Source: Alphaproteobacteria bacterium (GTDB taxonomy: Bacteria; Pseudomonadota; Alphaproteobacteria; Rs-D84). From it: 64,000 nt of DNA. The translations under genes and the position numbers were made by a program. The stretch lies in NCBI GenBank assembly GCA_015062545.1, contig SUUL01000002.1:114995-178994 (forward strand), given 5' to 3'. Positions 10,187 to 53,198 of the stretch are shown in pieces. Positions within the stretch are counted from its first letter, which is position 1, and every line of letters begins with the position of its first letter. The notes under the pieces are model-generated. The model saw nothing but the letters and a program-made list of their open reading frames with translations, ran no database searches and was not told where the DNA came from.

Positions 10187-10621
10187 ATGACTAAAAACGC
10201 GTGTTTTTTTATATACATTTTATGTTCTTGTATGCTGATTCATCAATCGGCAAGATGTGAAAACACAAACCAAAAGTGGGTTGGAAAGTGGTATCTAAAT
10301 GACCAGGACACTGTTTTTGGTGGGGTAATGGATGTTTCTAACTGCGATGATACAACATGTGATTTTAAATTGGAATCGTGGTACGATTTACATATCTGTG
10401 ATGTTGACGGTAAAATAAAAATCAACGGAGACAAGGCAGAATACAACGACAAAAAACATCAATATGACAGAGAGACAGATACGGAATATTTTATTCCTGT
10501 TGGTATATTGTTTCAAATGGAGTCAGAAGATAAAATGAATCTGCGTTTTATCAATGCAGATTCATTTAGTGCTTTTTGTGGTATGCAAGCAACACTTGAA
10601 GGGATATGGATTAGACAATAA
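10187..10621 (+). CDS. hypothetical secreted protein
   Basis: hydrophobic N-terminus, Cys-containing, no known motif. Confidence 0.4.
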   Translation: MTKNACFFIYILCSCMLIHQSARCENTNQKWVGKWYLNDQDTVFGGVMDVSNCDDTTCDFKLESWYDLHICDVDGKIKINGDKAEYNDKKHQYDRETDTEYFIPVGILFQMESEDKMNLRFINADSFSAFCGMQATLEGIWIRQ

Positions 10622-11134
10622 TTAGTATTTATTCGTTCGTATTGTCCAACCATTTTTTGCCGTTTTCCAGTTTTTTGTCCCCTTTAAGTAATCTATTCTT
10701 TCGGTTTTTAGCACAACCATAAATTCGTTGACTTTGCTATCAGGAATCGTATTTATGGATTTAATTGTTTCGCTGCCTATGGCACCATCAACAACCAAGT
10801 TCGCATCCAAAAAAGAATTTAGTGCACGTTGAACTGTCTTTCCGGCACCTCCCATCACATTCATATCAAAAACTGCATCACGTATTCTGTCGTTTGTGAT
10901 TTCTGGGATTCGTGTATTGTCCCAATATTCGTTTTTATAAATTTCTTTGGCCTGTGCGGCTGTTAAATATTTTACATCTGCTGGGAAATTTTTGTCTGGG
11001 TACTTGGCAGAATATCTGTCCAGTGTACTTTGTTTAATTCCCATATTTGTTGGTTCGTCCTTAATCTGATTCTTGCCATCTGTATATCCCCCTTCGGGTT
11101 CTTTTAACTTGTTGTATGCACTTTCAAATTTCAT
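10622..11134 (-). CDS. GH108-family lysozyme with C-terminal PG_binding_3 domain
   Basis: 'EPEGGYTDG...MGI' (EGGY motif), 'FDMNVMGGAGKTVQRALN', 'LVVDGAIGSETIKSIN' peptidoglycan-binding motif. Confidence 0.6.
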   Translation of the reverse strand: MKFESAYNKLKEPEGGYTDGKNQIKDEPTNMGIKQSTLDRYSAKYPDKNFPADVKYLTAAQAKEIYKNEYWDNTRIPEITNDRIRDAVFDMNVMGGAGKTVQRALNSFLDANLVVDGAIGSETIKSINTIPDSKVNEFMVVLKTERIDYLKGTKNWKTAKNGWTIRTNKY

Positions 11135-11289
11135 ATAGTTTTCCTTTTGTTCAAAAAAATCCCGCGCGTGGCGGGAAAATAAAAATTATCAATGTTTGAT
11201 GTTAAATCGATACAGCCCGCCAAACCTGGAACCCATCCGCCATGAATTGAAAAATCATCATATTGGTTTCTTTTGATGGTTTTATCCAT
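11121..11289 (-). pseudogene. orphan C-terminal fragment of YkuD/Tlde1-like toxin (copy A)
   Basis: encodes 'MDKTIKRNQYDDFSIHGGWVPGLAGCIDL...' starting in-frame right after the stop of the upstream membrane-protein gene; homologous to residues ~95-135 of 12176..12628. Confidence 0.6.
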
Positions 11290-11307
11290 ATGCACAAGAT
11301 AAGTGTC

Positions 11308-11661
11308 TTATCTTTGTATTAAATAAGAGAGTAAATTTAGCACAATTTCCATAACAACTGGTATAGAAAGCAAAATACAAGATTGAATATATTTATGCCT
11401 TGCTCCCTTATATATTCCAACAAACAAACACGATAACTGTATAAGCAAATATATTAACAACAAGACAACATAATAAATTGTGCGTATTTCCACCCCCATA
11501 AATTCAATAAACTTACAGCATTCTCCGTACAGCATATATGGATATGGAGCCATAGTAAAAACATATCGTAATTCGGAAATTGGAACCAGTATTGCTATAA
11601 AAGATAAACATAATAGCAATACCCATCCCAAAATACATAAAATTGATTTAACTAATTTCAT
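11308..11661 (-). CDS. small multi-TM membrane protein (candidate immunity protein)
   Basis: 117-aa, three to four hydrophobic helices; lies between toxin fragment copies. Confidence 0.5.
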   Translation of the reverse strand: MKLVKSILCILGWVLLLCLSFIAILVPISELRYVFTMAPYPYMLYGECCKFIEFMGVEIRTIYYVVLLLIYLLIQLSCLFVGIYKGARHKYIQSCILLSIPVVMEIVLNLLSYLIQR

Positions 11662-11671
11662 CAATGGTATT

Positions 11672-12175: not shown

Positions 12176-12628
12176 CTAGTATTTTACATGTACAATCAGG
12201 TCTTTTCCAGTACTTTCTAGCCAGGATGTAAAAGCATTTATTTGCCCTGTCATATCAATACAGCCCGCTGACCCCAGATTCCATCCGCCATGAATTGAAA
12301 AATCATCACGACCGTATGTATTGGTTTCTTTTGATGGTTCCAACCATACACGAGAGCTGCCCCAAGAATATTCAGAACCCGGCCATTCGCCTACACCCGC
12401 CAGCCCGATAATTGCATTTGTTACAGAAAGGTGTTGCAACTCACTTTGTCTTGCAACGTATGTGCCTTCGGGGATTGGTCCTGTATCTTTTAGGTTTTGA
12501 TATTCAGGACTTCTGTATCCATCTTTGCCCGACACAGCATCCCACGACATAATTGGTTTGTCGTTTTCATACAGTGTAAATTTCTTGCCGTCAAACAATA
12601 CCTGGAACAACTTATGTCGATGATTCAA
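12176..12628 (-). CDS. putative L,D-transpeptidase-fold toxin (YkuD/Tlde1-DUF2778-like)
   Basis: C-terminal 'DDFSIHGGWNLGSAGCIDM' with a His..Ser/Gly-Cys arrangement like YkuD/Tlde1 active sites; two orphan C-terminal copies lie downstream. Confidence 0.45.
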   Translation of the reverse strand: MNHRHKLFQVLFDGKKFTLYENDKPIMSWDAVSGKDGYRSPEYQNLKDTGPIPEGTYVARQSELQHLSVTNAIIGLAGVGEWPGSEYSWGSSRVWLEPSKETNTYGRDDFSIHGGWNLGSAGCIDMTGQINAFTSWLESTGKDLIVHVKY

Positions 12629-12634: not shown

Positions 12635-12970
12635 CTAATCACGCTGAAAATAAAACTTACATCCATCCAAATAAACATATATAGAATTTGGATTGGGTGC
12701 ATAAAATTTTTCTGTTGTGCCTGTGTCTTTTTTAACCAAAATTTCTTGGGCTTTTTCGTCATTATCATAACCGCCGATGGCGATGTTTGAACTATTGATT
12801 TCAAATGAAGTATTTTCATAAAAATTCTGGGCAACATATTCACAATCTGCAGTTATGTATCCAGCATATTCAAATCGTCCAAAAGACCATTTGCCGCAGA
12901 ACTCACAAGATTTACTGTCTGTAGAGCTACAACCAATCAAAAATACACAAACCAAAACTATCTTTTTCAT
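12635..12970 (-). CDS. lipoprotein
   Basis: 'MKKIVLVCVFLIGCSS' signal peptide with lipobox L-I-G-C. Confidence 0.6.
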   Translation of the reverse strand: MKKIVLVCVFLIGCSSTDSKSCEFCGKWSFGRFEYAGYITADCEYVAQNFYENTSFEINSSNIAIGGYDNDEKAQEILVKKDTGTTEKFYAPNPNSIYVYLDGCKFYFQRD

Positions 12971-13002: not shown

Positions 13003-14139
13003 TCAATATATACCGCGTTTATACAAGTTCCATTCATTTTGTCTGCGGTTAATTAAACCGTTTGATACTTTTCCCTGGGTGCGATTCCATGCCCGCCATG
13101 CGGATTCTAAATCCGAATAAACAGAACTATGAAAATCCGGGTTGTTTATATATTTTACAACTGTTGAATTCTTAAACCCACCCGAACCGATGTTATATGC
13201 CAAAGACACCAATGCGTCATATTGGTTTTGCGCCAACGGAACCGTGATATTATCATTTACTGCACGTTCTGCCACGGCGATATCAGAACGTAATAATGCA
13301 ATCGCCTGCCGTTCTGTGATTCCGTTTGTAAAATCTTCACCCGGCTTTACCAAATGCCCATAGCCAATTGTTGCGCCTTTTGGTAAAGGCTCGTTTGGAT
13401 TTACTGGTTTTTTCGTAGCGTCATCATATATAACATGATTGCCCCGCTTGTCTAACACTCTGTCTTCTTTACCTTTTAACCATTCAATACCTTTATCACT
13501 CATTTTCATATCGGATACCTTATTTGATTTTTGTTCTGTTTTATATGGCTTTGTGCTGATTGTTTTGCCGTTTTTATCCAGTGTTTCTTCGGTAATATGG
13601 CATGCGCAGTTTTCATGAACTGGGCATACGGGTATGTCGTCTGGAAAAAAATAAACCGTGCCATCACGAGATTCGCATTCATCGCAAGTATTTTCGCCGC
13701 CACTGCTGTGCCACCGCCATATCTTGGGGGCAATTTTAAATTCAGGTATGTCCAATTCATATGTATCCAATTGCCGTTTTGATATGTAACCACCTGGCAT
13801 TAAAACTTTGACCGGTATCGGGTCGCCAGAGACAACATAATCTTCAATATTAAAATCAAAGCCAATGTTTTCAAAGTAGTCCTCAAAGTCTTCCATAACT
13901 TCTTCGGTGGCATCATCTTTTTCTGCTTCAAAATCTGCGTCTATTTCGGCCTGTGCCGCATTAAATTGTTTTAATGTCATATCGTATTCTGGGCGCATCA
14001 TACGACCAGATGCATCAAATTGCACCGTGCCAGGATATAGTATGTTCATATACTTTGTTGCCCGTCTATATGTTTCGCTGTTTTTATCGCCGTATTCGGG
14101 CGATGATAATAATTCCTGTAAAAATTTTGGTGTTTGCAT
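13003..14139 (-). CDS. phage MuF-like (head-morphogenesis C-terminal motif) protein fused to GH24 lysozyme
   Basis: 'CDECESRDGTVYF...PVCPVHENCACHI' resembles the MuF/SPP1 gp7 C-x-x-C...P-H-P-N-C-R-C motif; C-terminal 'GATIGYGHLV...ITERQAIALLRSDIAVAERAVN...PLAQNQYDALVSLAYNIGSGGF...NRRQNEWNLY' is a T4-lysozyme-like GH24 domain; GGAG RBS before ATG 14139. Confidence 0.6.
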   Translation of the reverse strand: MQTPKFLQELLSSPEYGDKNSETYRRATKYMNILYPGTVQFDASGRMMRPEYDMTLKQFNAAQAEIDADFEAEKDDATEEVMEDFEDYFENIGFDFNIEDYVVSGDPIPVKVLMPGGYISKRQLDTYELDIPEFKIAPKIWRWHSSGGENTCDECESRDGTVYFFPDDIPVCPVHENCACHITEETLDKNGKTISTKPYKTEQKSNKVSDMKMSDKGIEWLKGKEDRVLDKRGNHVIYDDATKKPVNPNEPLPKGATIGYGHLVKPGEDFTNGITERQAIALLRSDIAVAERAVNDNITVPLAQNQYDALVSLAYNIGSGGFKNSTVVKYINNPDFHSSVYSDLESAWRAWNRTQGKVSNGLINRRQNEWNLYKRGIY

Positions 14140-14247
14140 TTTATTCTCCATAAAAAACACCCGCGTGTGCGGGTAATAAAAAAGACGACAAAATGTCGTC
14201 TGTCTGATGCCGCGTATTATACCATAAAACGTACTAAAAATCAATAA

Positions 14248-42085: not shown

Positions 42086-42089
42086 AAAC

Positions 42090-42120
42090 CTGGGGGGGGA
42101 TGTACCCCCCAGTATTATTT
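42090..42120. terminator. bidirectional terminator hairpin (GGGGGGGG-atgta-CCCCCC)
   Basis: GC hairpin flanked by A/T runs on both sides; separates host operon from phage-like cluster. Confidence 0.65.
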
Positions 42121-42375
42121 TATAACTGCACCTTTGATAAGGTTCAGGTCTTCTTTGATGTCGTCTATTTTTATCTGAATTTGACCGATGCCGGTTTCTA
42201 GTATCGTTGTGCGATTTTCCAATGCCGTTATGCGTGAATCCACACGTTCTAGTTCGGTTATGGAAAAATCCTGACGGGCAGCCCAATATATTACGCCCCC
42301 AATAAACGCAATTAAAAACCAACTGTCGCGTAACAAATCCAGCAATCCAAATGCCGTGGCAGCCCGTGTCGTCAT
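42115..42375 (-). CDS. phage-cluster hypothetical protein with TM segment
   Basis: 86 aa, one hydrophobic helix, coiled-coil C-terminus. Confidence 0.4.
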   Translation of the reverse strand: MTTRAATAFGLLDLLRDSWFLIAFIGGVIYWAARQDFSITELERVDSRITALENRTTILETGIGQIQIKIDDIKEDLNLIKGAVIK

Positions 42376-42376
42376 C

Positions 42377-42577
42377 TTATTTATCCCCCCTGCCCCGCGT
42401 TATGTGCGTTTCAATCTGTTGTACCAATGCACGCTGGGATTCATGCCAACGCAACTGAAAATCTGTCGCGTTGCATCCCAATGTGCGATTCAATATCGTG
42501 TCACGCAAATGCTGTAATACCGCCATACCCGCAGGTGTGGAAAAACAGCGCGCATACTGTAAATCAATATCTGTCAT
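42377..42577 (-). CDS. phage-cluster hypothetical protein
   Basis: 66-aa ORF tightly packed after portal gene. Confidence 0.35.
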   Translation of the reverse strand: MTDIDLQYARCFSTPAGMAVLQHLRDTILNRTLGCNATDFQLRWHESQRALVQQIETHITRGRGDK

Positions 42578-42580
42578 CTG

Positions 42581-43810
42581 TTATTCCCCCAAGGCCGTTT
42601 CAATCGCCGTCATTTGGGCAATAGGTGCAATATATTTCAATTCTGCATCACCATGTAATGTTATTGGCGCAATAACACCACGACTGGATAATATCTGTAA
42701 TCCACGGTCACATAACGGCCTGATAAATTCATGCAACAAGCGACCATACGTCGCACCCAATATACGCATCATGTCTGCGTTGCGTGCCATAATTTCTGTG
42801 GCTGTCATTTCTTTTTCAGACAATAACCCCAGTCTGTCCGCCAATAATGCATGGCGAATACGTTCACGCAAATCTTTCAACACCAGTTGCGATACATCAA
42901 AGTCCGCACCACTGGCCAATGGCGTTAAGCCTGACGAACCAACCGCCTTGGGGATAATTGCGCCGGGGGTTAAATTGATGTTATTCAGGTTTATTACACC
43001 GTCATCGTCCGCCTGCCAGATGCCGGATACGGCAATTGTTGCATTCTTTAATACCAATTCTACAACCTTGTTGGCGGTTTTTATATCCGGTAATGCACGC
43101 AAGACAGGACCGCGACCATATAATTCACCCGATGATACAGACCAACGAAAGATAATATATGGATTCGTTTCAAATGTACCTGTGGACACAATATTATTTT
43201 CAATATCACCACCAACATCCAACCAGGCTGTAAATTCTGTACCAACCAATGACTGGACCAGTTTTAATGGTGTTTCTGGATTCTGTTTAATGGTGTCGCG
43301 CAGGTTGTTGGGCGGTGTCCATGTTGGATAACGTTCCATGACTTCACATGCCGGCATTGATGTAGTGTGAAATACTGCGTTGGGTAAAATGGCAATGTCT
43401 GACATCGGAATCGCTGTAAATGTAAACGCAGATGACGCGCCAATCGGCGATTGTGCCATAAATAAGCAAGCCGTCCCCAAAACGACCAAGTCCATATAAC
43501 ATTGATGTATAACTGTGTAAAAATTAGAATCGTTCAGATTTGCACGTAATGCGTTTGTGGCATATTCTGCATCTGGTGACATGATGCTTTCTGGGACAAG
43601 TGTTAACCACATAGATTCTGGCGGGGTTAACAATGTATAAATTGATGCCGCCAAATTATCTGCCGCATCCATCGCAGTTGCATCAAACAATGTTGCCGCA
43701 TCATCATCGGCAGTTGGCATGGTATATCTGCGCGCGCTGTCCCAGCGGTTTTGCCATGGGGCGCGCATATCCAAGGCGCGTTTATATAAACTTTGCAGGT
43801 TTTGTTGCAT
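42581..43810 (-). CDS. T7-like portal (head-tail connector, gp8-like) protein
   Basis: N-terminal 'YKRALDMRAPWQNRWDSARRYTMPT...DNLAASIYTLLTPPESMWLTL' parallels T7 gp8 'YERLKNDRAPYETRAQNCAQYTIPS...NNLASKLMLALFPMQTWMRLTI' (from memory). Confidence 0.6.
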   Translation of the reverse strand: MQQNLQSLYKRALDMRAPWQNRWDSARRYTMPTADDDAATLFDATAMDAADNLAASIYTLLTPPESMWLTLVPESIMSPDAEYATNALRANLNDSNFYTVIHQCYMDLVVLGTACLFMAQSPIGASSAFTFTAIPMSDIAILPNAVFHTTSMPACEVMERYPTWTPPNNLRDTIKQNPETPLKLVQSLVGTEFTAWLDVGGDIENNIVSTGTFETNPYIIFRWSVSSGELYGRGPVLRALPDIKTANKVVELVLKNATIAVSGIWQADDDGVINLNNINLTPGAIIPKAVGSSGLTPLASGADFDVSQLVLKDLRERIRHALLADRLGLLSEKEMTATEIMARNADMMRILGATYGRLLHEFIRPLCDRGLQILSSRGVIAPITLHGDAELKYIAPIAQMTAIETALGE

Positions 43811-43839
43811 AAGGTTTCTCCTTTGGTTTTGTGTTATGT

Positions 43840-44706
43840 TTATATGTTGAAATTCGTGTTGGCTGAAAATGTCTTTATCGTGCCACCCAATGGGCGAATA
43901 AGTGTTGCAGGATGTGCAATCGCACCGGCAACGGCATCCAGGCCGTCATCATGCATGCCATGCGCCATGGGAGACCACCCCAACATTTCTGCCATCAAAG
44001 GGGTCTTTTGCACGCGAATATGTGCATGCAAATGTCCCGTTGTTAAAACTGGTTCAATCGCGTCTAAAATTCTGTCTGATTTGGCCCGAACGTTTGATAC
44101 GCGGGTTACGTAAATGCATAAGCCACGCCGCGTGGCACAATCGCGCATTATTTCCGGCAAGCCACCACCAATCCCGTTCGTTTCAATAGTTATCCGATGC
44201 AAACCACGCGCATGCATAAAATCCAGAACTTGATTGCACTGATTGGACAATGGATATTGTTCCGTATCAGACACCGTCAAATACAAAATGTCATGAATAA
44301 ATACATTGCGCGCCTTGTCATCACGATACAGTAACACACACGCACTGCCGTCACGATTGCGGCGACCACTGGATGGATCCCAATATAAAATGCTGCCGGT
44401 TATTAAATTATTACCCAGTTTTGCCGTGCGTGGTTCAAATTCGTCATCATAGAAATGCAGACTGCCGGGATCAAGGCGCGCACGTTCGGGCGAAATAAAT
44501 TCCAACATCATTTGTGCCGAAAAATGTCGCGCACCAACCGTTTCACGCATACTGTTTATCTTTTCAATCGGAAAAAGTTCCGGCCACGCGGGATTTCCCG
44601 CCGTATCAACAATGGGAATTTTTAATAATTTATACCCACTTAAAAAAGGCGTTGAAAAAGCAAAATTTTCATATACCATGGGCATAGAAGAAAAGGATTT
44701 TGACAT
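43840..44706 (-). CDS. terminase large subunit, C-terminal nuclease domain (separate ORF)
   Basis: 'DPSSGRRNRDGSACVLLY' first catalytic Asp motif and terminal 'MHDDGLDAVAGAI' motif; the open frame has no upstream ATG beyond an internal ATG at 44706 preceded by a GGGGG RBS. Confidence 0.6.
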   Translation of the reverse strand: MSKSFSSMPMVYENFAFSTPFLSGYKLLKIPIVDTAGNPAWPELFPIEKINSMRETVGARHFSAQMMLEFISPERARLDPGSLHFYDDEFEPRTAKLGNNLITGSILYWDPSSGRRNRDGSACVLLYRDDKARNVFIHDILYLTVSDTEQYPLSNQCNQVLDFMHARGLHRITIETNGIGGGLPEIMRDCATRRGLCIYVTRVSNVRAKSDRILDAIEPVLTTGHLHAHIRVQKTPLMAEMLGWSPMAHGMHDDGLDAVAGAIAHPATLIRPLGGTIKTFSANTNFNI

Positions 44707-46270
44707 GGATTTTACCCCCAAAACATTACCCACCAATCTGGAAGCAGAACAGGCCGTATTGGCCGCGGTTTTAATGAATAATCGCGCATTGGAACGTGTG
44801 TCAGAATTCTTGCGGGCAGAACACTTTTCACACCCCGCACATCAAGAAATATTCCGTCTGGCAGAACGTCAATTCGCCGCAGGCATACCGTTTGATATTA
44901 TTACCGCAAAAAACTATCTGGATCAGCAAGGCGTGTTGGAATCTGTTGGCGGGGTTGATTATCTGACACAATTATCTGGCGCAGGTGCAACCGTTGTTAA
45001 TGTAGAGCAATATGGACGTATCGTTTATGAACACGCATTACGCCGTGATTTGATTGCGTTGGGCCAAGATATTACAGACAAGGCCTTTATTGAAGATTTG
45101 GATAATCCTGTGGCGCGTCAGATTGAATTGGCCGAACAGAAACTGTTTGATATGGCAACCGCAGGTGCATCTGAACGCGAAGTAACATCCATTTCAACCG
45201 CATTGGAATCTGCATTGAAAGAAGCAGAAATCGCATACAAGGCCGATGGGCAGTTATCCGGTCTGACAACTGGATTGACCGCACTGGATAAATCAATCAG
45301 TGGCTTGCACCATTCTGACTTGATTATTATCGCGGGCCGTCCGGCGATGGGTAAGACAACATTGGCGATGAATATCGCGTTTAATGCCGCCAATGCCATT
45401 GCATACAATCGTGCAAATCAAAATTATAAAGGCGCGGTTGTGTTCTTTAGTCTTGAAATGTCGGCATCACAGTTGGCGGCGCGTGTGCTGTCTTCACAAT
45501 CCAAAATTCCTGCATCTGCAATGCGTGAAGGAACACTGACCGATGAAGATTTCTTGAAAATGTCACAATATTCTGCAGCCATTGGTAAAGTTCCGTTATT
45601 CATTGATGACACGCCAGGTATGTCCGTACCAATGATGCGTACACGCGCCAGAAGACTGGCACGCAAACATGGCGGTATTGCATTAATCGTCATTGACTAT
45701 CTGCAGTTGATGACCGCCCCAGGTGGCAAACGCAGCGATAACCGGGTACAGGAAATTTCTGAAATTACCCGTGGTCTGAAAATGCTGGCCAAGGAACTGG
45801 ACGTGCCTGTAATCGCACTGTCACAGTTGTCGCGAAGCGTGGAATCACGTGATGACAAACGACCACAGTTGGCTGACTTGCGCGAATCAGGGTCTATTGA
45901 ACAAGACGCGGACATCGTTATGTTTACGTATCGCGAAGAATATTATCTGCAAAATCGCGACCCGTCCGAAAGATTATCAAACACAACAAACAGCACAATG
46001 GTCGAATCGTGGCAAAAAAGACTGGAACGCGCACGCGGCAAAGCAGATATTATTATCGGTAAAAACCGTCACGGCCGTCCAGAAACTGTACGAACTGCAT
46101 TCTTTGGGGATTACAGCTTGTTCGATAACCTGGACGAATTCCAAACACGGGGCGAAAATGAATTTGCACAACCTGCACCAACAATTTCCGCAGCCGCATT
46201 GGGGCCAGACCCCGAATTTGAACCAACCGCCATCGATATTGATGCAATCCCAGATGATATGCCAATGTAA
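44678..46270 (+). CDS. dnaB: replicative DNA helicase DnaB
   Basis: 'LEAEQAVLAAVL' N-domain, Walker A 'AGRPAMGKTT', 'IVIDYLQLM', 'VIALSQLSR'; start is either 44678 or 44705. Confidence 0.85.
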   Translation: MGIEEKDFDMDFTPKTLPTNLEAEQAVLAAVLMNNRALERVSEFLRAEHFSHPAHQEIFRLAERQFAAGIPFDIITAKNYLDQQGVLESVGGVDYLTQLSGAGATVVNVEQYGRIVYEHALRRDLIALGQDITDKAFIEDLDNPVARQIELAEQKLFDMATAGASEREVTSISTALESALKEAEIAYKADGQLSGLTTGLTALDKSISGLHHSDLIIIAGRPAMGKTTLAMNIAFNAANAIAYNRANQNYKGAVVFFSLEMSASQLAARVLSSQSKIPASAMREGTLTDEDFLKMSQYSAAIGKVPLFIDDTPGMSVPMMRTRARRLARKHGGIALIVIDYLQLMTAPGGKRSDNRVQEISEITRGLKMLAKELDVPVIALSQLSRSVESRDDKRPQLADLRESGSIEQDADIVMFTYREEYYLQNRDPSERLSNTTNSTMVESWQKRLERARGKADIIIGKNRHGRPETVRTAFFGDYSLFDNLDEFQTRGENEFAQPAPTISAAALGPDPEFEPTAIDIDAIPDDMPM

Positions 46271-46347
46271 TTGATAATTATTTTCTTGCGCCGTGCCGAT
46301 AAATTGACTATTATTTTGTCAAGAAATAACTGTTTTAGGAGTTAGAC

Positions 46348-47355
46348 ATGGCACAAGAAGAAATTATCTTTCCAAATAATATTCGTAACATCCGTTTGGC
46401 AAATGGTATGAAAATGACAGAACTGGCGCGTCAGGCCGGGTTGTCTTTGTCCGCTGTTTCCAAAATCGAAAAAGGTGTGCGCCGATTAAACCAAAAACAG
46501 TTGTTGAATATTTGCAATATCTTGGGATGTAAATTGTCCGATATTTTCATCAAAGAATCCGATGATGTCGCAAACCAATGGCAAGATGAAATTAAACGCC
46601 GTATGACAGACAATGAAAATAATGGTCTGAAAATATTCGGCAGTGGTCTGCGCAAAATCCGCCAACAGGCCGGCAAAACAATCGCCCGTGCCGCAAAAGA
46701 TGCAGGTATGACATTGTCTGTATATCACAAGATAGAAGTCGGACAACGTGAAATATATACCAATGAAATTGAACCGTTGGCAAAATCTTTTGCATTAGGC
46801 GCAGAAGAACTGTTTGAAAAAATCGCGAATCTGTACAAGTCTGGCGAACTGAACAAACACATGAACAAGGTCAAAGAACGTGTAAAATCTGTATTGGAAC
46901 CCGGCAGTCCATTGTCTGGTATCGATATGGGTGGTGGACTGTATGGCGCAAAATTGTATGACAGTGCACGTAAAAAACTGATTCCTGTGTTTGGAACACC
47001 ATCTGGCAAAGCATTAACCTTGAAGAAATCAGATAAAACCATGATTGTCGCACCAATATCACTGGAGGGACGTAATGGTATTTACGCAGTGGTACCAAAT
47101 GCCAAACGTTTGGGTGGAATCATACCTGAAAAATCTTATGTGTTTGCAGATGCGTTGGTAACACCAAAAGTTGGTGATATGGCAATCTGTATGGATGTTG
47201 ATTTTGATACACTGGATGCAGATACCAACGTGGTCGCGCATATCGTAACAGTAAAACAAGATGCCAAGGGTAAGATTTACGGTCAAGCCATGTTCCCAGA
47301 AGAAAAAATTAATGCCAAAACAATGCACAAAATTATTATGATTGTTATGGAATAA
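46348..47355 (+). CDS. CI/LexA-like repressor: two HTH_XRE domains + S24 peptidase-like C-terminus
   Basis: two 'LS.SAVSKIEKG / ...TLSVYHKIEVG' XRE HTH units; C-terminal beta-rich domain with Ser/Lys spacing like the S24 family. Confidence 0.55.
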   Translation: MAQEEIIFPNNIRNIRLANGMKMTELARQAGLSLSAVSKIEKGVRRLNQKQLLNICNILGCKLSDIFIKESDDVANQWQDEIKRRMTDNENNGLKIFGSGLRKIRQQAGKTIARAAKDAGMTLSVYHKIEVGQREIYTNEIEPLAKSFALGAEELFEKIANLYKSGELNKHMNKVKERVKSVLEPGSPLSGIDMGGGLYGAKLYDSARKKLIPVFGTPSGKALTLKKSDKTMIVAPISLEGRNGIYAVVPNAKRLGGIIPEKSYVFADALVTPKVGDMAICMDVDFDTLDADTNVVAHIVTVKQDAKGKIYGQAMFPEEKINAKTMHKIIMIVME

Positions 47356-47385
47356 TTACCCCCCTTTGGAAAGGAGAGAGCAAAC

Positions 47386-48024
47386 ATGAAAGCAACCGCA
47401 CGCGTAACTGCACAAAGACTGTTAAATCTGTATCGGCAAGAACATGTAATTATTGGCGGATGGGCCGCCGTAAACCCAATATTTGTCCAAGATGCAACTG
47501 ATATGGTTATGCAAGAGTTGGCCGATATGCCAACAGGAAATGCATTAATCGCACATATCAATAATCTGCGCAGCGGTAAAACCCCAATGAATTCTATTGA
47601 ACGCGAATTATTACCATACGGTGGCATGATGGCAGAAGCGTTGCCATCAATCACACTGAACCAAAACCAATGGCAAGAATTGACCCAGGCAATAGAACAA
47701 TTTACCCCAAATCAGCCAGGTTTGGACAAGTTTACTGCGTTGGATGTGGTACGTCAATTCGGTGCAGAATGGCCAACCGCAATTCGTGCAATCCTGACAG
47801 AACGCCCGCATTTGTTAGAAAAGTGGGCAACCATTAACCAAACATATAACGCATATAAATTATGGAATACCGCACATGAAATTATCGCAAATCCACTGTC
47901 GGAACGTGTGCGCGCCCAAGTACAGGCAGACATGCCAGAATATGAAACTTATTTGCCGATGTTTGGTGATGCAGGTTCGGAATTATTGGTAAAACTGCGC
48001 ACTTTTATCAGCAGTCTGAATTAG
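47386..48024 (+). CDS. hypothetical protein
   Basis: 212-aa ORF; its stop overlaps the convergent terminase ATPase ORF stop. Confidence 0.4.
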   Translation: MKATARVTAQRLLNLYRQEHVIIGGWAAVNPIFVQDATDMVMQELADMPTGNALIAHINNLRSGKTPMNSIERELLPYGGMMAEALPSITLNQNQWQELTQAIEQFTPNQPGLDKFTALDVVRQFGAEWPTAIRAILTERPHLLEKWATINQTYNAYKLWNTAHEIIANPLSERVRAQVQADMPEYETYLPMFGDAGSELLVKLRTFISSLN

Positions 48025-48626
48025 TTTCCGATTGCAGTGCGGTAAATCGTATCGTACGCATGCGGTGTACCAATATATATCATCGTTCCGGTTGGCGACA
48101 ATATAAAATCTAATTCACGTAATCTTTCACGCAAATTTTCACGTTTCTGTGCGGTGTTTGCCGTGTTTGGAACCTCTACGTCATCGCATATAATCAAATC
48201 TGCACGCATACCGGTGATATTTCCGTGTACCCCTTGGCAAATTACAGACGGTTCGCGAATACCAATCGGGCGTTTAACAGTGATACGACCCGTGGCCCAC
48301 TCTTTTTTACCAACAGGTATCATATCAGTACACCATGGATGATTTTCTAAAATATGCCTGATATGACCAACCATACGTGTTGCCAGACCACTTTCCGCCG
48401 ACAAAATCAAAATTCTGGTTTCTGGGCGCAGGTACAAAACACATGCTGCAAAAACGCCAACCACCGTGGATTTGCCAGAATGACGAAACGCCATCAACAA
48501 TCCACGATGTGGCGACACAGATAATATATCAACCAAGAAATTCATTATTCGCCGATGATGTGCCGGTGTCTGATATCCCAAAACACGATTCCATTCGTCT
48601 AAAAACGCGTTAAATTCCGTATTCAT
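48021..48626 (-). CDS. terminase large subunit, N-terminal ATPase domain (separate ORF)
   Basis: Walker A 'AFRHSGKST', Walker B 'LIICDDVE', motif III 'YIGTPH'; terminates right after motif III. Confidence 0.7.
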   Translation of the reverse strand: MNTEFNAFLDEWNRVLGYQTPAHHRRIMNFLVDILSVSPHRGLLMAFRHSGKSTVVGVFAACVLYLRPETRILILSAESGLATRMVGHIRHILENHPWCTDMIPVGKKEWATGRITVKRPIGIREPSVICQGVHGNITGMRADLIICDDVEVPNTANTAQKRENLRERLRELDFILSPTGTMIYIGTPHAYDTIYRTAIGN

Positions 48627-48650
48627 TTTGGCAATATCCCAAGAAGCAGG

Positions 48651-48998
48651 TTATCCAACAATGTCATCCAATCTGGATAATAAAGATTGTAATAATTTGG
48701 GCTTTTTGACGGCGGATTCTTTAATTTTCTTTAAGTTATTTTTGCGTTTTTCTTCATAAGGTGCCGCCGTTTCTGATTTCAGACGTTTCAAAACCGCCCC
48801 TTGGGTTATGCCATCACCAGACACGCCAGATGCACCATATTTGGCGCGTTGACTGGCCAAAACCTTTTTTATCAGATTTGTTTTTTCAGTTTCGTCTGCC
48901 GCCATTTGCGCCAAGATTTCTTTACGCGCAGATTTTGCAGATTTTTTGGCATCTTTGTATTCCAAGATGTCCGTTACATCAGATACAATTTGTCCCAT
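48651..48998 (-). CDS. hypothetical protein (position suggests terminase small subunit)
   Basis: 115-aa basic/helical protein immediately upstream of terminase ATPase ORF. Confidence 0.3.
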   Translation of the reverse strand: MGQIVSDVTDILEYKDAKKSAKSARKEILAQMAADETEKTNLIKKVLASQRAKYGASGVSGDGITQGAVLKRLKSETAAPYEEKRKNNLKKIKESAVKKPKLLQSLLSRLDDIVG

Positions 48999-49022
48999 AT
49001 TTTATCCTTTTTTTTAATAAGT

Positions 49023-50753
49023 TTAGACAGAATACCAACCATGTATGCACACAGATGAAACTGTGGCGGGGTATGCCGCGCTGCCATGTAATGTCCATAA
49101 TGGACGCGTGCCGTCATGACTGGTTCCTAAACAATTTAACGATACATCGCCGGTAAAACCGTTGGATGCAGTGTCATAAATGTCATTAGGCAACACAGCC
49201 TGATGAGTGTTTATATAAATAGATTTCGTATCAATGATACGCACAACAATCTTGCGTAATTTTATCCGGGTAACATTATGATTAGATATGCGTAATGGTA
49301 ATGAAGATGCACAAAATGAATAGTCATATTCATCTGCATCACGTAACGCATTACTGTCAAAATATTCCAAGAATACTTGGCCATCGCGCAATACAACAAC
49401 ATACGTTTTCTGATTACATACGGTGACAGATAAAAATTGTCCCGATGTTCTGTATGTACCCCATGCAGATACACCCAAAGCCGCATTTTGATTCAAAACC
49501 GCCATGGTGCCGTCTTGTTTTACGATAAACAACTGGTGCAAGGATTCGTTGTATGCAATATCCAATGGATTTTGTATCAAATGCTTGGATAACATGCTTA
49601 GATCATTGGCATTGTAATGTTCACCCAATTCATCCAGACTTAGTTCGCGAATATCGCAACCGTTGGCAGAAACAAAAACTGTTGCGCCTTCTATGCGTTG
49701 GGGCGGTAAGTATCGCGCGGAATAAGAACCAACAGATGTGTGCTGTTTGATATCAACAGACGAAGGTGTCAGGGGTTTACTGGATATGGCCCATTCGCCA
49801 ACATTGGTTAATATTTGCAAATTATCACTGCTGACCACGGTACATATTTGTTGACGCTGTTGCGACAACAAAGACAGAAAGATGCCTTCGTCATCCAAGC
49901 CTGTGCCAACAGAAAAGTTTTGGTGATTGCCGACATGTGACATCCATATCCCAGATGGCCAATCACGTGAACCACCAAATACCAATCTGTCTTGGTGAAA
50001 TGTTATACTGCGCGGCCAACCACGATGTTTACTAAAGGCGGCCTCGCGCCAATCTGTGATTGCGGTATCTGTTGCAGTATAAGAACCATTGGTAAATACT
50101 GTGACCTGGGTTTCATTAATATATTCTGTAATAACCCACTGACGATTCTGAAGATACAGACGTGTATTAACATAATCAGGTGTCCAAAACGCACGATTGG
50201 TGCTGAACACTGCGTAATTATTTCCCAATGAACTGGTGCTGATTTGAATCTGAACATCAGATGCATCTTCAAATTTTACAAATGGAATATTCAATGTCAT
50301 GTCTGAATCGTTGCGCGAAAAAGCAAAATCAGACATATAAAATCTGCCACTGTCCCAATATAATGTTTGTGGCACATAATCAGGATGAACAAATATCATC
50401 GTCCCAAAACGCTGGGCATATTGAATATTAAACAAGTCATCATATCCCCAAGGTGTTATCAAATCTTGGAATAAGTTATTGTCACGATATATAAACATGT
50501 GACAATCGGTCAATACAATTAAATATTCTAAATTGTCCGATGCAGAAAATGGTATCAAACGTGCATGACCGTCCAGTAACGCAACAGATGTTAAACCACA
50601 TCGCCGCCGCAGACCACCACCTGACAAGACATCCATATTTTCCAGACGTGACAGACCATGAATATTATCATGGTTGTAAAATTCTGGGGCAACTTCGCCA
50701 TTTGCAAATGAACTTTGTGTTTTTATAAAATCAGACATGTTATATTTCCCCAT
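49023..50753 (-). CDS. T7 gp12-like tail tubular protein B (short form)
   Basis: N-terminal 'FANGEVAPEFYNHDNIHGLSRLENMDVLSGGGLRRR' parallels T7 gp12 'LKGGISQQPDILRYPDQGSRQVNGWSSETEGLQKRPP' (from memory); follows the gp11-like gene. Confidence 0.45.
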   Translation of the reverse strand: MGKYNMSDFIKTQSSFANGEVAPEFYNHDNIHGLSRLENMDVLSGGGLRRRCGLTSVALLDGHARLIPFSASDNLEYLIVLTDCHMFIYRDNNLFQDLITPWGYDDLFNIQYAQRFGTMIFVHPDYVPQTLYWDSGRFYMSDFAFSRNDSDMTLNIPFVKFEDASDVQIQISTSSLGNNYAVFSTNRAFWTPDYVNTRLYLQNRQWVITEYINETQVTVFTNGSYTATDTAITDWREAAFSKHRGWPRSITFHQDRLVFGGSRDWPSGIWMSHVGNHQNFSVGTGLDDEGIFLSLLSQQRQQICTVVSSDNLQILTNVGEWAISSKPLTPSSVDIKQHTSVGSYSARYLPPQRIEGATVFVSANGCDIRELSLDELGEHYNANDLSMLSKHLIQNPLDIAYNESLHQLFIVKQDGTMAVLNQNAALGVSAWGTYRTSGQFLSVTVCNQKTYVVVLRDGQVFLEYFDSNALRDADEYDYSFCASSLPLRISNHNVTRIKLRKIVVRIIDTKSIYINTHQAVLPNDIYDTASNGFTGDVSLNCLGTSHDGTRPLWTLHGSAAYPATVSSVCIHGWYSV

Positions 50754-50760
50754 TTAATAA

Positions 50761-51318
50761 TTAAAAACGTGTACTGATTAGTGAAAACTCTTGGATTCCA
50801 TCAGCCACCGATATTGTACTGTCTATGAATTTTGCCGTTTGCAATTCTGATTCATACAGTGCCGCCAACGTGCGAAATACGGTCTGATTTCCCGTCAATG
50901 GAATACAAAATTCCATTGCCAAGCGTGTTGCCAACATGGATACAAAATAACTGGGGTATGTGTCTGGTGTCATACGCACAATCGCCAAAATTTTAATTGA
51001 TTCACTGGACGATTCTATGTATTTTCCAACCAATTTGCCATCAGATTTCAACACACGCAGAACATTATCAGGAACCAAAAAATTACCATCTGAATTTTTT
51101 CTCAATGATATTTCTTGGGTTGCAAAATGCCACGGATGTATTGACAGCAAAGAATCCGCCACAGCATCATACAACGTACGCGCCAACCGCGAATTCACCG
51201 AATCATCTGTCCAGGATTGAATTGGACTTTCACCCAACTTTAACAAGGCCATTGAACATAAATCTAGTTTTGTAAGCATTGGTATTCCTTTTTGTATTAT
51301 AAAAAACAAGGGCGACAC
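50761..51318 (-). CDS. T7 gp11-like tail tubular protein A
   Basis: 'LDLCSMALLKLGESPIQSWTDDSVNSRLARTLYDAVADSLLSIHPWHF' parallels T7 gp11 '[22 protein letters not shown]...[21 protein letters not shown]'. Confidence 0.55.
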   Translation of the reverse strand: MSPLFFIIQKGIPMLTKLDLCSMALLKLGESPIQSWTDDSVNSRLARTLYDAVADSLLSIHPWHFATQEISLRKNSDGNFLVPDNVLRVLKSDGKLVGKYIESSSESIKILAIVRMTPDTYPSYFVSMLATRLAMEFCIPLTGNQTVFRTLAALYESELQTAKFIDSTISVADGIQEFSLISTRF

Positions 51319-51343
51319 AAAATGCCGCCCGACAATATATAAA

Positions 51344-51574
51344 TTAAGCCAACGAAACCGTTGTTACATTCAATTCTGTTATATTAATTTTCTTGATGGC
51401 TGTATTATCAGATGCATTAATCATGATAATGTCGCCAATGTTCATCAATGTTTTAACATTGTTGAAATATCCATTGGCGGTAATTGTTGCCAATGTTTCA
51501 TTTGCACTGTAATGCCACAATGTAAATCCATTAGCATACGCGATAACAGATAAATTTTTATTCTGAAATGCCAT
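51344..51574 (-). CDS. hypothetical protein downstream of capsid gene
   Basis: 76-aa ORF. Confidence 0.3.
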   Translation of the reverse strand: MAFQNKNLSVIAYANGFTLWHYSANETLATITANGYFNNVKTLMNIGDIIMINASDNTAIKKINITELNVTTVSLA

Positions 51575-51614
51575 GTGTTTTTCCTTTTGGTTTATGATTT
51601 ATTCAAATTGTGAT

Positions 51615-52436
51615 TTATTGTGCATCTGAACATTTAACGCGAACGATGCCATCACCATCAATCAAAACTGCGCCTTGGGACATGCTGTTGCTGATAAAGT
51701 GTGCCGCACGTTCACCATGCCAAGAAATATCTGTTTTGACTTCTTGACCACATGCATGACCGATGCTGGATGCGTGATAAATAAAGCAATCGCGGTTATC
51801 AGATGACACAGGTAAACCATTATACAACACCCATGTAATACCCAACCATTTGCGCGCTTCAAATCCATTTACCAATGGGCTGGCATTACCAACATAATCT
51901 GCAGACACAAATTCATCCATTGACAGCAATTCATTCCACTGATGTACACCAACAACCGCAAAGCGGCGACCATCATCTGGGACATCATTTGTGTTCAACA
52001 CTTCAACCGCAGACAAGATTAAATCTTTGGTCAAACCGGTGGAATAGTCACCAACATTTGCAGTTGCTGTATTCATGGCAGACACAATCAATTCATCTGT
52101 CTTGCGACCCAATGCGTACGCACCCGCAGATGCGACAACGCGGCGTTCATCAACATTTACCTTTAATTCATCCAATGCATCAACCCAATCGCCCGCATAA
52201 TAATCTTGCAAAAGACATTCTACGGGTTCATGATTCAAATTCATCACAGGAACAATGCCATGACGAGATTTGGTACTGGCGGTGCCACGACCAACTTTTT
52301 GAAAAGTTGTAGATGCGCCAACAACACCAGATTTACTGCGTACTGTTGAACGTAATTTGGTGCCCATTTGCTGATAAGCCAAATGAACATCTGCTTCGAA
52401 TTGTTTCACAAAAACATTATCTATGGAAACAGACAT
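51615..52436 (-). CDS. T7-like major capsid protein (gp10 family)
   Basis: 'FEADVHLAYQQMGTKLRSTVRSKSGVVGASTTFQKVGRGTAS' parallels T7 gp10A 'VLTAFARTSVTTSRHMVRSISSGKSAQFPVLGRTQAA'; start at the Met with an AAAGGA RBS. Confidence 0.65.
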   Translation of the reverse strand: MSVSIDNVFVKQFEADVHLAYQQMGTKLRSTVRSKSGVVGASTTFQKVGRGTASTKSRHGIVPVMNLNHEPVECLLQDYYAGDWVDALDELKVNVDERRVVASAGAYALGRKTDELIVSAMNTATANVGDYSTGLTKDLILSAVEVLNTNDVPDDGRRFAVVGVHQWNELLSMDEFVSADYVGNASPLVNGFEARKWLGITWVLYNGLPVSSDNRDCFIYHASSIGHACGQEVKTDISWHGERAAHFISNSMSQGAVLIDGDGIVRVKCSDAQ

Positions 52437-52654
52437 AAAAAATCCTTTGGTTAAAAAGTTAAAATTACGATGTGATAACACACATCACCAAAATTTTGTA
52501 TTTTGGTTATGCAAATTAATGCGCCATAAAAAACAAAAGCTATCGGGTTCGTATAAAACGAATTATCCATAAAAAATATCAGTCAGACTGTACGTAATCA
52601 TCTGACTGATACTTTTGAAAAACCCCCGCATCGCGGGGGCTGATATATTGTTAA

Positions 52655-53092
52655 TTATTTTTTCTTAACAACTTTTTTTGCAGCTGGTTTTTTTGCAACT
52701 ACTTTCTTTGCAACTGGTTTTTTTGCAACCGGTTTTTTTGCAACTGGTTTTTTTGCAGCTACTTTTTTTGCAACTGCTTTTTTTGCAACTGGTTTTTTTG
52801 CAACTACTTTTTTTGCAACTGGCTTTTTTGCAGCTACTTTCTTTGCAACTGGCTTTTTTGCAACTGCTTTTTTTGCAACTGGCTTTTTTGCAGCTACTTT
52901 TTTTGCAACTGGTTTTTTAGCTGCTACTTTTTTTGCAACTGGTTTTTTTGCAACAGGTTTTTTAGCTGCTACTTTTTTTGCAACTGGTTTAACCGCCGCT
53001 TTCTTTGCAGGTGCAGCTTTTTTTGCAACAGGTTTTGCAACAGGTTTAACCGCTGCTTTCTTTGCCGCAGATTTTCTAAATAAGAATGCCAT
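52655..53092 (-). CDS. Lys/Ala-rich histone H1-like (Hc/AlgP-like) DNA-binding protein
   Basis: 145 aa, almost entirely [10 protein letters not shown] pentapeptide repeats encoded by 15-nt tandem DNA repeats. Confidence 0.6.
52676..53070. repeat. tandem 15-nt repeat array (coding for [10 protein letters not shown] units)
   Basis: visible periodic 'ttttttgcaactggt/ttttttgcagctact' units. Confidence 0.85.
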
Positions 53093-53198
53093 TCTTTCTC
53101 TCCTTGTTATGGTTTTGGATAGAACAAACCCTTTTTGTTCTTACTTTGTATTTTATCTTAAACACAAAACTTAGTAAAGAAGAAAGTGATATTTTTTC

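Follow-up and report, generated by a model that had tools for sequence, protein, structure and literature searches.

MuF-type Cys/His modules joined to exchangeable peptidoglycan-hydrolase domains in gut Alphaproteobacteria of the order Rs-D84, and a possible tie to a phage-derived gene cluster

Results

The effector gene and its domains

The window, a stretch of 64,000 nucleotides (nt) of contig SUUL01000002.1 whose coordinates are used throughout, carries an intact open reading frame (ORF) on the reverse strand (13003-14139) that encodes a protein of 378 amino acids (aa), here called the effector. Its ATG start codon at 14139 is preceded by the ribosome-binding site GGAGAA, the stop codon occupies 13003-13005, and an alternative in-frame ATG lies four codons upstream, at 14151. 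No signal peptide was found in the protein. An earlier note on this DNA, made from the letters alone, had described the gene as a MuF head-morphogenesis motif fused to a lysozyme and had quoted a cysteine cluster and the motifs TIGYGH and QNQYDALVSLAYNIG. All of them are present in the ORF, the cluster as CDEC (aa 152-155; C152-x2-C155) and PVHENCAC (aa 173-180; P173-V-H-E-N-C178-A-C180), followed by the other two. The protein is divided as follows.

13738..14139, reverse strand: aa 1-134, lineage-specific N-terminal region of helices, with a long helix at aa 56-92, and a small beta sheet
13570..13737, reverse strand: aa 135-190, MuF-derived Cys/His module with W141, W143, C152, C155, P170, P173, H175, N177, C178 and C180
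13495..13569, reverse strand: aa 191-215, linker and recombination junction
13003..13494, reverse strand: aa 216-378 and the stop codon, GH24 lysozyme payload

The T4-lysozyme-like nature claimed for the C-terminus was confirmed by Pfam Phage_lysozyme (PF00959, GH24), which matches aa 256-369 with an E-value of 3.5e-31 (108.6 bits; cutoff 22.3). E225, D240 and T257 are invariant in all 20 GH24-type members of the family. D240 and T257 align with D20 and T26 of T4 lysozyme, and E225 would be equivalent to its E11 by motif reading rather than by alignment. The payload thus combines an above-cutoff GH24 domain with conserved Glu, Asp and Thr positions, and lysozyme activity is predicted for it.

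Homology of the Cys/His module to MuF proteins

On the effector sequence alone, Pfam Phage_Mu_F (PF04233) scores 21.0 bits over aa 135-182 (cutoff 29.6) and is covered at profile positions 61-111 of 112 only, while TIGR01641 (SPP1 gp7) scores 18.4 bits (cutoff 39.65); by itself the effector does not qualify as a whole domain of either family. What the effector family does share is the conserved C-terminal MuF motif (W..W...CxxC...P.HPNCRC). An alignment of 75 homologues shows no variation at C155, P170, P173, H175, N177 and C178, and conservation of at least 90% at C152 and C180. PF04233 was matched by 17 of 17 diverse family N-termini (best E-value 1.8e-7). A profile of aa 1-196 run against 1.84 billion representative proteins gave 672 matches, of which only about 25 clusters are matched over the whole length, the remainder covering ~135-196 alone. 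This profile retrieves proteins with a complete, above-cutoff MuF domain at E-values of 1e-6 to 1e-7, always via ~135-196; in those retrieved (P0227, P0236, P0243, P0254, P0261 and P0264; 51-78 bits) the MuF domain is C-terminal.

In a Foldseek search of the aa 1-196 model against BFVD, the top matches were nearly all MuF, minor capsid or head-morphogenesis proteins, aligned over ~50 residues with high probabilities and, because the module is short, weak E-values; the full-length model matched mostly plain lysozymes. Against PDB, the N-terminus gave nothing below E = 1 by sequence profile and no meaningful match by Foldseek. PHROG head-morphogenesis and minor-head families match aa ~138-230 (E-values 1e-4 to 4e-8), and the alignment with phrog_4728 (head morphogenesis) spans the MuF module and continues into the lysozyme. 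A tblastn search with aa 135-378 matched 1,448 of 50,697 phage records; among the 30 phage records listed, all match the lysozyme part only, and one further record covers at least 80% of the query. IMG/VR contigs contained the MuF motif only (aa ~123-190) and never the full N-terminal domain. No second MuF-like motif was found in the window with hidden Markov model (HMM) and regular-expression searches.

From these comparisons we conclude with high confidence that the module is homologous to the C-terminal half of phage MuF/gp7 proteins. The likeness to MuF put forward in the earlier note therefore holds for the C-terminal half, as seen in profiles and folds, and not for the whole domain, which remains below the Pfam and TIGRFAM cutoffs; of the two domains it had named for a profile search, Phage_lysozyme is well above threshold and Phage_Mu_F is not in the effector itself. 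A generic zinc ribbon, the alternative raised there, is ruled out by the PF04233 matches, the profile retrieval and the BFVD folds, which together point to a MuF-specific Cys cluster, predicted to form a zinc module. Compared with SPP1 gp7 and Mu gpF, the effector shares the homologous W-x-W...C/R-x2-C/H...P-x-H-P-N-C-R-C module but lacks the N-terminal half of the domain and the gp7/gpF region before it, and its scores stay below cutoff. The first 134 residues are instead a lineage-specific addition in place of the helical N-terminal half of MuF. The full-length N-terminal region is confined to Rs-D84/Enterousia genomes, and AlphaFold models covering it reach a predicted local distance difference test (pLDDT) score of 81-83 (81 for the aa 1-196 model).

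One N-terminus joined to several payloads

Homologues of the effector are 365-430-aa proteins from metagenome-assembled genomes labelled Alphaproteobacteria. A species-level genome scan assigned the relatives to Candidatus Enterousia and its kin from the gut of human, ruminant, horse, chicken and mouse, with 153 intact relatives and sometimes two or more per genome; a metagenome scan yielded 14 loci only. By this distribution, the family appears specific to Candidatus Enterousia and the order Rs-D84, whose genomes of ~0.75-1.0 Mb lack the tricarboxylic acid cycle, respiration and standard transporters (PMC12306168).

Across the family, the conserved 196-aa N-terminus is joined to differing C-termini, namely Tlde1, GH24, GH108 and a second lysozyme-like payload. 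It is 93% identical in Tlde1/YkuD-ending proteins of sister strains (P0036, P0042, P0063, P0065) and 72-77% identical in Tlde1- or GH108-ending proteins (P0108-P0119, P0116). In 77 species-level loci, the payloads are Tlde1 (28), GH24 (20), GH108 (19) and the second, divergent lysozyme-like fold (8), and an M23 peptidase payload occurs in more distant relatives. Judged by domain family, all payload classes seen would target peptidoglycan. Homology between the effector and a Tlde1-fused allele stops at position 13558 (aa 194), and payloads have been swapped by recombination at a junction near this residue. That the same N-terminus is found on Tlde1 and GH108 supports the earlier idea of a MuF-type polymorphic toxin with a peptidoglycan-hydrolase payload.

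Immunity partners and displaced cassettes

Downstream of the effector lies an array of toxin and immunity-type genes:

12635..12970, reverse strand: 111-aa lipoprotein (MKKIVLVCVFLIGC..., lipobox LIGC; cluster 22), candidate GH24 immunity protein
12176..12628, reverse strand: displaced Tlde1 (L,D-transpeptidase-fold) module that lacks the N-terminal domain; its DNA is 92.5% identical to that for the C-terminus of the full-length Tlde1 effector of sister strain L009
11808..12161, reverse strand: 117-aa multi-pass membrane protein (cluster 15), Tlde1 immunity candidate
11308..11664, reverse strand: 118-aa membrane protein (cluster 64), a second Tlde1-associated immunity-type gene, here without a toxin
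11131..11295, reverse strand: Tlde1 3' fragment (DFSIHGGWVPGLAGCIDLTSNIDNF...) joined to the second half of the effector leader (see below), with a hairpin at 11160-11176 and a ribosome-binding site
10622..11134, reverse strand: stand-alone GH108 muramidase module of 170 aa, a domain that P0116, P0121 and L015 carry fused to the N-terminal domain
10187..10621, forward strand: 144-aa signal-peptide protein convergent with GH108 (cluster 25, the partner in 13 of 26 GH108 modules), candidate GH108 immunity protein

The window and L009 are 95% identical at the DNA level from 250 nt upstream of the gene to codon 194. Beyond this codon, L009 continues in frame into Tlde1, whereas the window has a GH24 and lipoprotein cassette inserted before Tlde1; the displaced parts are 92.5-97.5% identical between the two. 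We read this arrangement as the cassette-displacement signature of polymorphic toxin loci. In all, 29 toxin modules without the N-terminal domain were counted in 80 loci. The shared N-terminus, the differing C-termini and the displaced downstream modules with junction homology are those expected of polymorphic toxins with orphan cassettes. CDI (contact-dependent inhibition), Rhs and MafB orphan arrays are likewise built from a full-length gene, an immunity gene and displaced toxin/immunity cassettes, with junction homology and exchange between strains. The effector differs from them in its short N-terminus (196 aa), which has neither repeats nor a filamentous stalk, and in its export route.

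To pair toxins with partners, all ORFs of the 80 loci were clustered and the immediate downstream family was recorded for each toxin module. Tlde1 modules are followed by the small, multi-pass membrane-protein clusters 1, 15 and 64 (35 of 40), GH108 modules by clusters 25, 154 and 8 (convergent signal-peptide proteins; 22 of 26), GH24 modules by clusters 22 and 8 (19 of 27) and the second lysozyme-like fold by cluster 66, a 310-340-aa lipoprotein (8 of 8). Every partner family has a signal peptide, a lipobox or a transmembrane segment. For GH24, the partners are split between cluster 22, a lipoprotein of 111-124 aa (10 of 27), and cluster 8, a convergent signal-peptide protein (9 of 27). Cluster 22 is the commonest same-strand downstream partner of GH24 and never the top partner of any other payload class.

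The lipoprotein encoded at 12635-12970, for which no Pfam or NCBIfam family was matched, had already been named as an inhibitor candidate, and this standing is strengthened by the GH24-specific occurrence of its family. It combines class-specific co-occurrence with predicted export, making it a putative neutralising partner of the lysozyme. Since no terminator lies between the two genes, the lipoprotein gene is probably co-transcribed with that of the effector. Overall, we consider it very likely from these comparative data that the effector is a polymorphic peptidoglycan toxin with cognate immunity.

A Peptidase_S66 (LD-carboxypeptidase-type) gene borders the array on the forward strand (8950-9975). 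Its adjacency is probably coincidental because L002 has different genes at this place.

A promoter and two-hairpin leader upstream of the effector

The region between the effector and its promoter contains two hairpins:

14216..14244, reverse strand: promoter-like site with -35 TTGATT, a 17-nt spacer and a TG-extended -10 TATAAT
14183..14201, reverse strand: leader hairpin 1 (AGACGACATTTTGTCGTCT) followed by a T-run, supported by covariation
14158..14175, reverse strand: leader hairpin 2 (ACCCGCACACGCGGGT) followed by a T-run, directly before GGAGAA, supported by covariation

Of 76 species-level loci, 69 share this layout of -35 TTGAnn, extended -10 TGnTATAAT, GC-rich hairpin and T-run, second hairpin and T-run, ribosome-binding site and ATG. 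RNAalifold on a MAFFT leader alignment gave four pairs, with hairpin 1 out of register, and the structure was set by hand. In an alignment of 34 sequences, 89% of cells are paired and compensatory changes occur in 8 of 11 pairs; pairs 25-39 and 28-36, in hairpin 1, alternate between AU and GC (14:13 and 12:11). The observed covariation score was reached by none of 500 shuffles, and slid controls were 33-58% paired. The covariance model of the leader (R1) scores 64 bits on window positions 14131-14215, and a gathering-threshold Rfam scan of the window gave nothing at the effector leader or at the second such leader (54485-54544; see below).

The earlier note had described the gene as bracketed by terminators. 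Three hairpin and T-run sites do lie upstream of the effector, two of them inside the 5' leader, but none is present between the effector and the lipoprotein gene. Given their conservation, the upstream 'terminators' appear to be a conserved regulatory leader.

Searching 109 loci (3.4 Mb, counting both strands), we found 104 leader-bearing ORFs, 88 of which encode members of the effector family. Among the remaining 16 are the first gene of the phage-like cluster described below (2), Mtd_N tail-fibre-like genes (2; Pfam E-value 5e-13), toxins of a second type (P0117; 3), a protein with NNPGNL and MuF domains (3), a stand-alone GH24 (1; L086) and DuOB-like genes (3). We regard the promoter and double-terminator leader as the mark of a candidate new antitermination regulon. 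No Mtd_N, NNPGNL-MuF, P0117-type, DuOB or 183-aa fibre gene was found when the window was searched for them.

Some of these genes merit separate description. The P0117-type family (L056 7040-8100, L070 12615, L145 7518) has an unrelated N-terminus, a shorter MuF-like knuckle (CGGECGGC...PPFHPHCGC; also PPFHPNCKC), often followed by PG_binding_1, a Tlde1 or GH24 payload and the same two-hairpin leader; its GH24 domain is 93% identical to that of the window. A 201-aa protein (L025 12336-12940, L026 2166, L034 9135) begins with an 'RNNNPGNL' domain and ends in a MuF module, which scores 41 bits, above the Pfam cutoff. Its domain order is reversed relative to the effector, and it carries the same leader. 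The DuOB-like (dual OB) protein of 216 aa is preceded by a leader copy of 45-57 bits (L005 17728-18452, L048 ~9419-9508, L086 ~11963-12051).

A partial copy of the leader is found inside the window array (10622-11207, reverse strand), where GH108 is preceded by only the second leader hairpin and a ribosome-binding site, fused to the Tlde1 3' fragment. R1 scores 43.9 bits there (11133-11207). This half-leader is a recombination scar and may still permit expression of the stand-alone muramidase.

Stand-alone lysozymes of this kind bear on the possibility that the effector is a diffusible, bacteriocin-like lysozyme that is released by lysis and acts externally, for example on Gram-positive gut bacteria, without any injection device. 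The effector is small and has no signal peptide, and both the L086 GH24 with its leader and the window GH108 with its half-leader could lyse the producer. A Gram-negative producer, however, needs no periplasmic or lipoprotein immunity against an external enzyme, yet such immunity is retained by every payload class; the target of Tlde1 payloads is peptidoglycan metabolism in the periplasm, and free diffusion would leave the conserved 196-aa N-terminus with its invariant Cys and His residues unexplained. We therefore judge a purely diffusible mode of action unlikely.

A phage-derived structural cluster in the same window

On the far side of the window, a T7/BPP-1-like structural cluster of ~12 kb occupies 42086..54467 on the reverse strand (to 54598 with its leader) and is the proposed carrier of the effector. 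In the order of transcription of its first gene, it comprises:

54485..54598, reverse strand: two terminator hairpins in tandem behind a promoter-like site (TTGACT, 17 nt, TGnTAACAT), preceding the first gene of the cluster
54057-54467, reverse strand: SleB-like cell-wall hydrolase, first cluster gene
53199-53876, reverse strand: T7-type scaffold (PF05396)
52655-53092, reverse strand: HC2-like (histone-H1-like) basic protein, Lys/Ala-rich (chlamydial HC2 family, E-value 3.5e-21)
51615-52481, reverse strand: major capsid protein (PF19821, E-value 8e-71)
50761-51318, reverse strand: tail tube A (tail tubular protein)
49023-50753, reverse strand: tail tube B (tail tubular protein)
48651-48998, reverse strand: 115-aa protein
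48021-48626, reverse strand: N-terminal half of the large terminase (TerL), the ATPase half
47386-48024, forward strand: p212, a 212-aa protein
46348-47355, forward strand: double helix-turn-helix (HTH) regulator
~44705-46270, forward strand: DnaB
43840-44736, reverse strand: C-terminal half of TerL, the nuclease half
42581-43810, reverse strand: T7-type portal of 409 aa (PF12236, E-value 3e-81)
after the portal, reverse strand: Bbp19-like protein and a small ORF, cluster end

The cluster lacks an integrase and a lysis cassette, and no internal core proteins were recognised in it. Housekeeping genes border it, with lipB, rplI, rpsF and priA at one end and glycosyltransferases and bamA at the other. 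Five other species, with different outer flanks, have this gene order too, including the inverted p212-HTH-DnaB block. More than 100 portal clusters fall at 86-95% identity. The portals of the window and L057 share 82% identity, compared with 75% for RecG, 69% for M48, 83% for Frr, 75% for CdsA, 78% for RseP and 79% for BamA; the effector N-terminus is 46% identical. Gene order kept across species, core-like evolution and the lack of integration and lysogeny modules are the features of a domesticated particle, and on this comparative evidence the cluster appears to be a fixed, vertically inherited, domesticated element rather than a recent prophage. No description of it was found in the literature searched, and tube B gave no record by exact-sequence lookup.

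Within the cluster, TerL is split by the 3.3-kb opposite-strand block of DnaB, double-HTH and p212, an arrangement kept in L131, L132, L133, L148, L149 and L150. The HC2-like gene lies between scaffold and capsid, and counterparts of 119-154 aa are found at the same place in other species; the protein may be DNA-condensing or capsid-internal, or the match may be a low-complexity artefact.

Gene transfer agents (GTAs) and tailocins resemble this cluster in having no integrase, in housekeeping-level conservation and in dispersed accessory tail-fibre-like or cargo genes with a shared regulatory signature. Well-known examples are derived from siphoviruses and myoviruses. The cluster differs by its podovirus ancestry (T7/BPP-1), by the terminase split around DnaB and by its proposed protein-toxin cargo, and its particles are putative.

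Links between the effector and the cluster

Across both strands of the whole window, only two tandem-terminator leaders were found, that of the effector (14148-14203) and that at the cluster head (54485-54544). The cluster-head leader is present in five of five species in which the region was available (the window, L146, L148, L149 and L150), with differing stem sequences. It is the top R1 match in L148, L149 and L150 (28.5-37.4 bits, E-values 7e-4 to 6e-6) and scores 27.3 bits in the window and 32.5 bits in L146; over the cluster heads together, E-values run from 6e-3 to 6e-6. As the likeness is modest and ordinary single terminators reach ~32 bits, the link rests on architecture and not on a recognisable shared motif.

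The design recalls lambda late-gene control, in which the constitutive promoter pR' is followed by the terminator tR' that is read through with Q. Both have a strong promoter followed at once by intrinsic terminators before late or structural genes, a likeness of design only. Unlike lambda, the leaders here have two tandem hairpins, and no Q-like protein was identified, p212 and the double-HTH protein being candidates only. On balance, the shared architecture leads us to favour, with some reserve, common regulation of effector and cluster.

In two loci, both from divergent lineages, effectors of the family stand inside the cluster. In L046, the effector begins 12 nt after the portal gene without a promoter or leader of its own, which is the canonical MuF position. 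In L146, an effector with MuF module and M23 payload (10001-11158) and a 240-aa lipoprotein follow the N-terminal half of TerL. The stretch of this cluster bounded by tube B/p114 and a T7-type tail-fibre gene is occupied by a PG_binding_1-Tlde1 protein (7025-8029) and a membrane immunity gene. In the T7 gene order, the interval from tube to tail fibre is the place of the ejected core proteins. As proof of linkage, synteny was nonetheless downgraded, since two in-cluster effectors among ~95 loci are near the chance expectation. Taken with the shared leader design, such occasional synteny probably ties the effector to the domesticated phage-like cluster.

Shared regulation would also suit an endolysin (exit) or virion entry enzyme of the phage-like element that is not a weapon at all, comparable to GTA endolysins or T7 gp16. 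The best NCBIfam match of the effector is the BaGTA endolysin BgtA, far below cutoff (84.9 against 315 bits). PHROGs labels the NNPGNL domain 'endolysin' or 'tail injection transglycosylase' and the MuF-module proteins 'minor head protein and DNA pilot', and phrog_4728, as noted, covers MuF module and lysozyme together. For entry or exit, though, an enzyme has no need of five exchangeable catalytic classes, of immunity genes specific to each class or of displaced cassettes in arrays. Several effector copies per genome also speak against such a role, as does the N-terminus, which evolves fast in the way typical of conflict genes (46% identity, the portal having 82%). A simple entry or exit function seems improbable to us on these grounds, and it overlaps with packaging as a toxin at the packaging step. 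T7 gp16 itself is an ejected internal protein whose peptidoglycan-cleaving domain acts in the recipient periplasm during ejection. The effector family resembles gp16 and the PHROG 'minor head protein and DNA pilot' families as a proposed head-internal protein with a peptidoglycan-cleaving domain; gp16-type proteins, in contrast, function in DNA entry and are not known to be polymorphic or to have immunity partners.

Genomic neighbourhoods of the effectors

Effector neighbourhoods vary by lineage and are often frr-uppS-cdsA-rseP-bamA, elsewhere defence islands. In the window, a tRNA-Lys remnant lies on one side of the effector and housekeeping genes on the other, and the portal is 28 kb away. 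Effector neighbourhoods yielded no conserved gene for secretion or for a chaperone, and neither did the conserved neighbours of 80 loci. VgrG, Hcp, PAAR and adaptor genes were absent from the Pfam-annotated neighbourhoods of 12 loci and from the conserved neighbours of the 80 loci, the remaining genome not being searched. Neither linkage to a type VI secretion system (T6SS) nor a known N-terminal T6SS marker was seen for the effector, with only neighbourhoods covered.

These results bear on export by a conventional secretion system encoded elsewhere (T6SS-like, type IV-like or type I), which would act in a contact-dependent manner with the MuF module as no more than an adaptor or pre-toxin domain stabilised by zinc. 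Payloads of the Tlde1, lysozyme-like, muramidase and M23 kinds, countered by periplasmic immunity proteins, are classic T6SS cargo, and most loci have no linked apparatus, hence it would act in trans. The effector family shares with T6SS peptidoglycan effector-immunity pairs the payload folds and the adjacent periplasmic or membrane immunity genes. It differs from them in that the searched neighbourhoods, as distinct from whole genomes, show no VgrG, Hcp, PAAR or other secretion gene, that the N-terminus has no known T6SS marker and that its sole recognisable, presumably trafficking, element is phage MuF, while the leader is common to phage structural genes. The genomes are also just 0.75-1.0 Mb (PMC12306168). 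We hold a conventional route to have a low probability.

Adjacent to the effector, an island of 5.5 kb inserted in tRNA-Lys (14458-20228) is delimited by a perfect 46-nt direct repeat (14651-14696 and 20153-20198), with a third, 24-nt remnant at 14458-14481. It encodes a tyrosine integrase (14835-15983), a small membrane protein of the Imm_superinfect family (17012-17236), a 409-aa lipoprotein-like protein and a weak FtsK/EssC-like fragment (18724-19260). The island (14697-20152) was rejected as carrier of the effector, which lies outside the 46-nt repeats and is present in genomes without the island. The statement of the earlier note that the gene is encoded outside any prophage is true locally, but the phage-derived structural cluster lies 28 kb off in the same window.

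The proximity of attachment-site remnants and an integrase island, together with the retention of only half a MuF domain, might suggest a functionless, decaying prophage remnant in which a MuF fragment was accidentally fused to an endolysin gene. This is extremely improbable: the ORFs of 153 relatives are intact, neither the Cys/His nor the catalytic E/D/T residues vary, conservation extends to the promoter and the structured leader, and immunity pairing is consistent. Conservation effectively refutes it.

Discussion

The MuF-derived module, the leader and the immunity partners can be brought together in one model. The leader would normally halt transcription until an antiterminator releases it, putatively p212 or the double-HTH protein of the cluster, and the same switch would turn on the particle genes of the T7/BPP-1-like cluster. 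Within the capsid, the MuF-derived module would then dock the toxin to the portal in the manner of SPP1 gp7 and gp6; gp7 reaches the procapsid interior by binding this portal protein and assists infection (PMC6316719). The particle would eject the toxin into the periplasm of a neighbouring cell, where peptidoglycan would be cleaved unless the matching periplasmic immunity protein is present. The immunity proteins, predicted to be periplasmic, suggest that the toxin reaches this compartment in kin cells.

The best reading we can offer is a peptidoglycan toxin that is packaged in a capsid and controlled by antitermination, and we place it at about an even chance. Capsid-mediated delivery, taken as a claim of its own, falls slightly short of that. 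More tentative still, and in our view rather doubtful, is the broad proposal that Candidatus Enterousia and the order Rs-D84 keep a domesticated podoviral particle as a toxin-delivery machine, with effectors, tail-fibre-like genes and structural operon in one antitermination regulon and toxins loaded through the portal by the MuF zinc module, then injected into the periplasm of bacteria nearby.

Several observations weigh against packaging in a particle. The evidence base is a comparative sequence analysis of metagenome-assembled genomes in which no particles were seen. Most effector loci are distant from the cluster (28 kb in the window, ~92 kb in JAGBHZ010000002), and the two in-cluster effectors compare with ~1.3 expected by chance (the cluster being ~1.3% of a 0.9-Mb genome, ~95 loci). 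The leader similarity is modest (27-37 bits), within reach of single terminators. The model presumes that the C-terminal half of MuF binds the portal, and only that half is present; the portal here is of the T7 type (PF12236), whereas the known partner portals of MuF are of the SPP1/Mu type. Finally, with a split terminase and neither a small terminase nor internal core proteins recognised, the cluster might not make functional particles.

The concept of a MuF toxin was developed for polymorphic toxins of temperate phages (Zhang et al. 2012, PMC3482391; Jamet et al. 2017, PMC5576092). As in those proteins, a MuF-type Cys/His motif stands right before a variable C-terminal toxin domain, a small, presumed immunity ORF lies downstream, and capsid packaging is the predicted route of delivery, as proposed here. 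Location in a phage packaging or head module near portal or terminase was not found in the window and is seen only in L046 and L146. The family further differs in carrying only the C-terminal MuF half behind a new 134-aa region, in its chromosomal, dispersed genes, in payloads that would all target peptidoglycan and in the presence of displaced cassettes. Lysozyme, Tlde1 and GH108 are absent from the payloads reported for MuF toxins (PMC3482391, PMC5576092), and Jamet et al. 2017 mention neither lysozyme nor peptidoglycan (PMC5576092).

MuF-fused toxins have been a prediction since 2012, and the MuF-toxin literature searched contains no demonstration of capsid-mediated delivery of a protein toxin. 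The effector family offers a compact test system, with a 55-residue MuF-derived module as its sole recognisable trafficking element, easily assayed payloads (lysozyme, L,D-transpeptidase-fold, muramidase), defined candidate immunity proteins and a 12-kb cluster fixed in the lineage. The promoter and double-terminator leader, as well as the terminase gene split around a replicative helicase gene, are worth study on their own. If the proposal is true, the long-predicted 'MuF phage-capsid secretion system' would have its first domesticated representative here, in bacteria with genomes below 1 Mb. It would show that such bacteria still invest in interbacterial weaponry and a phage-derived particle, which bears on the lifestyle of unculturable gut Alphaproteobacteria.

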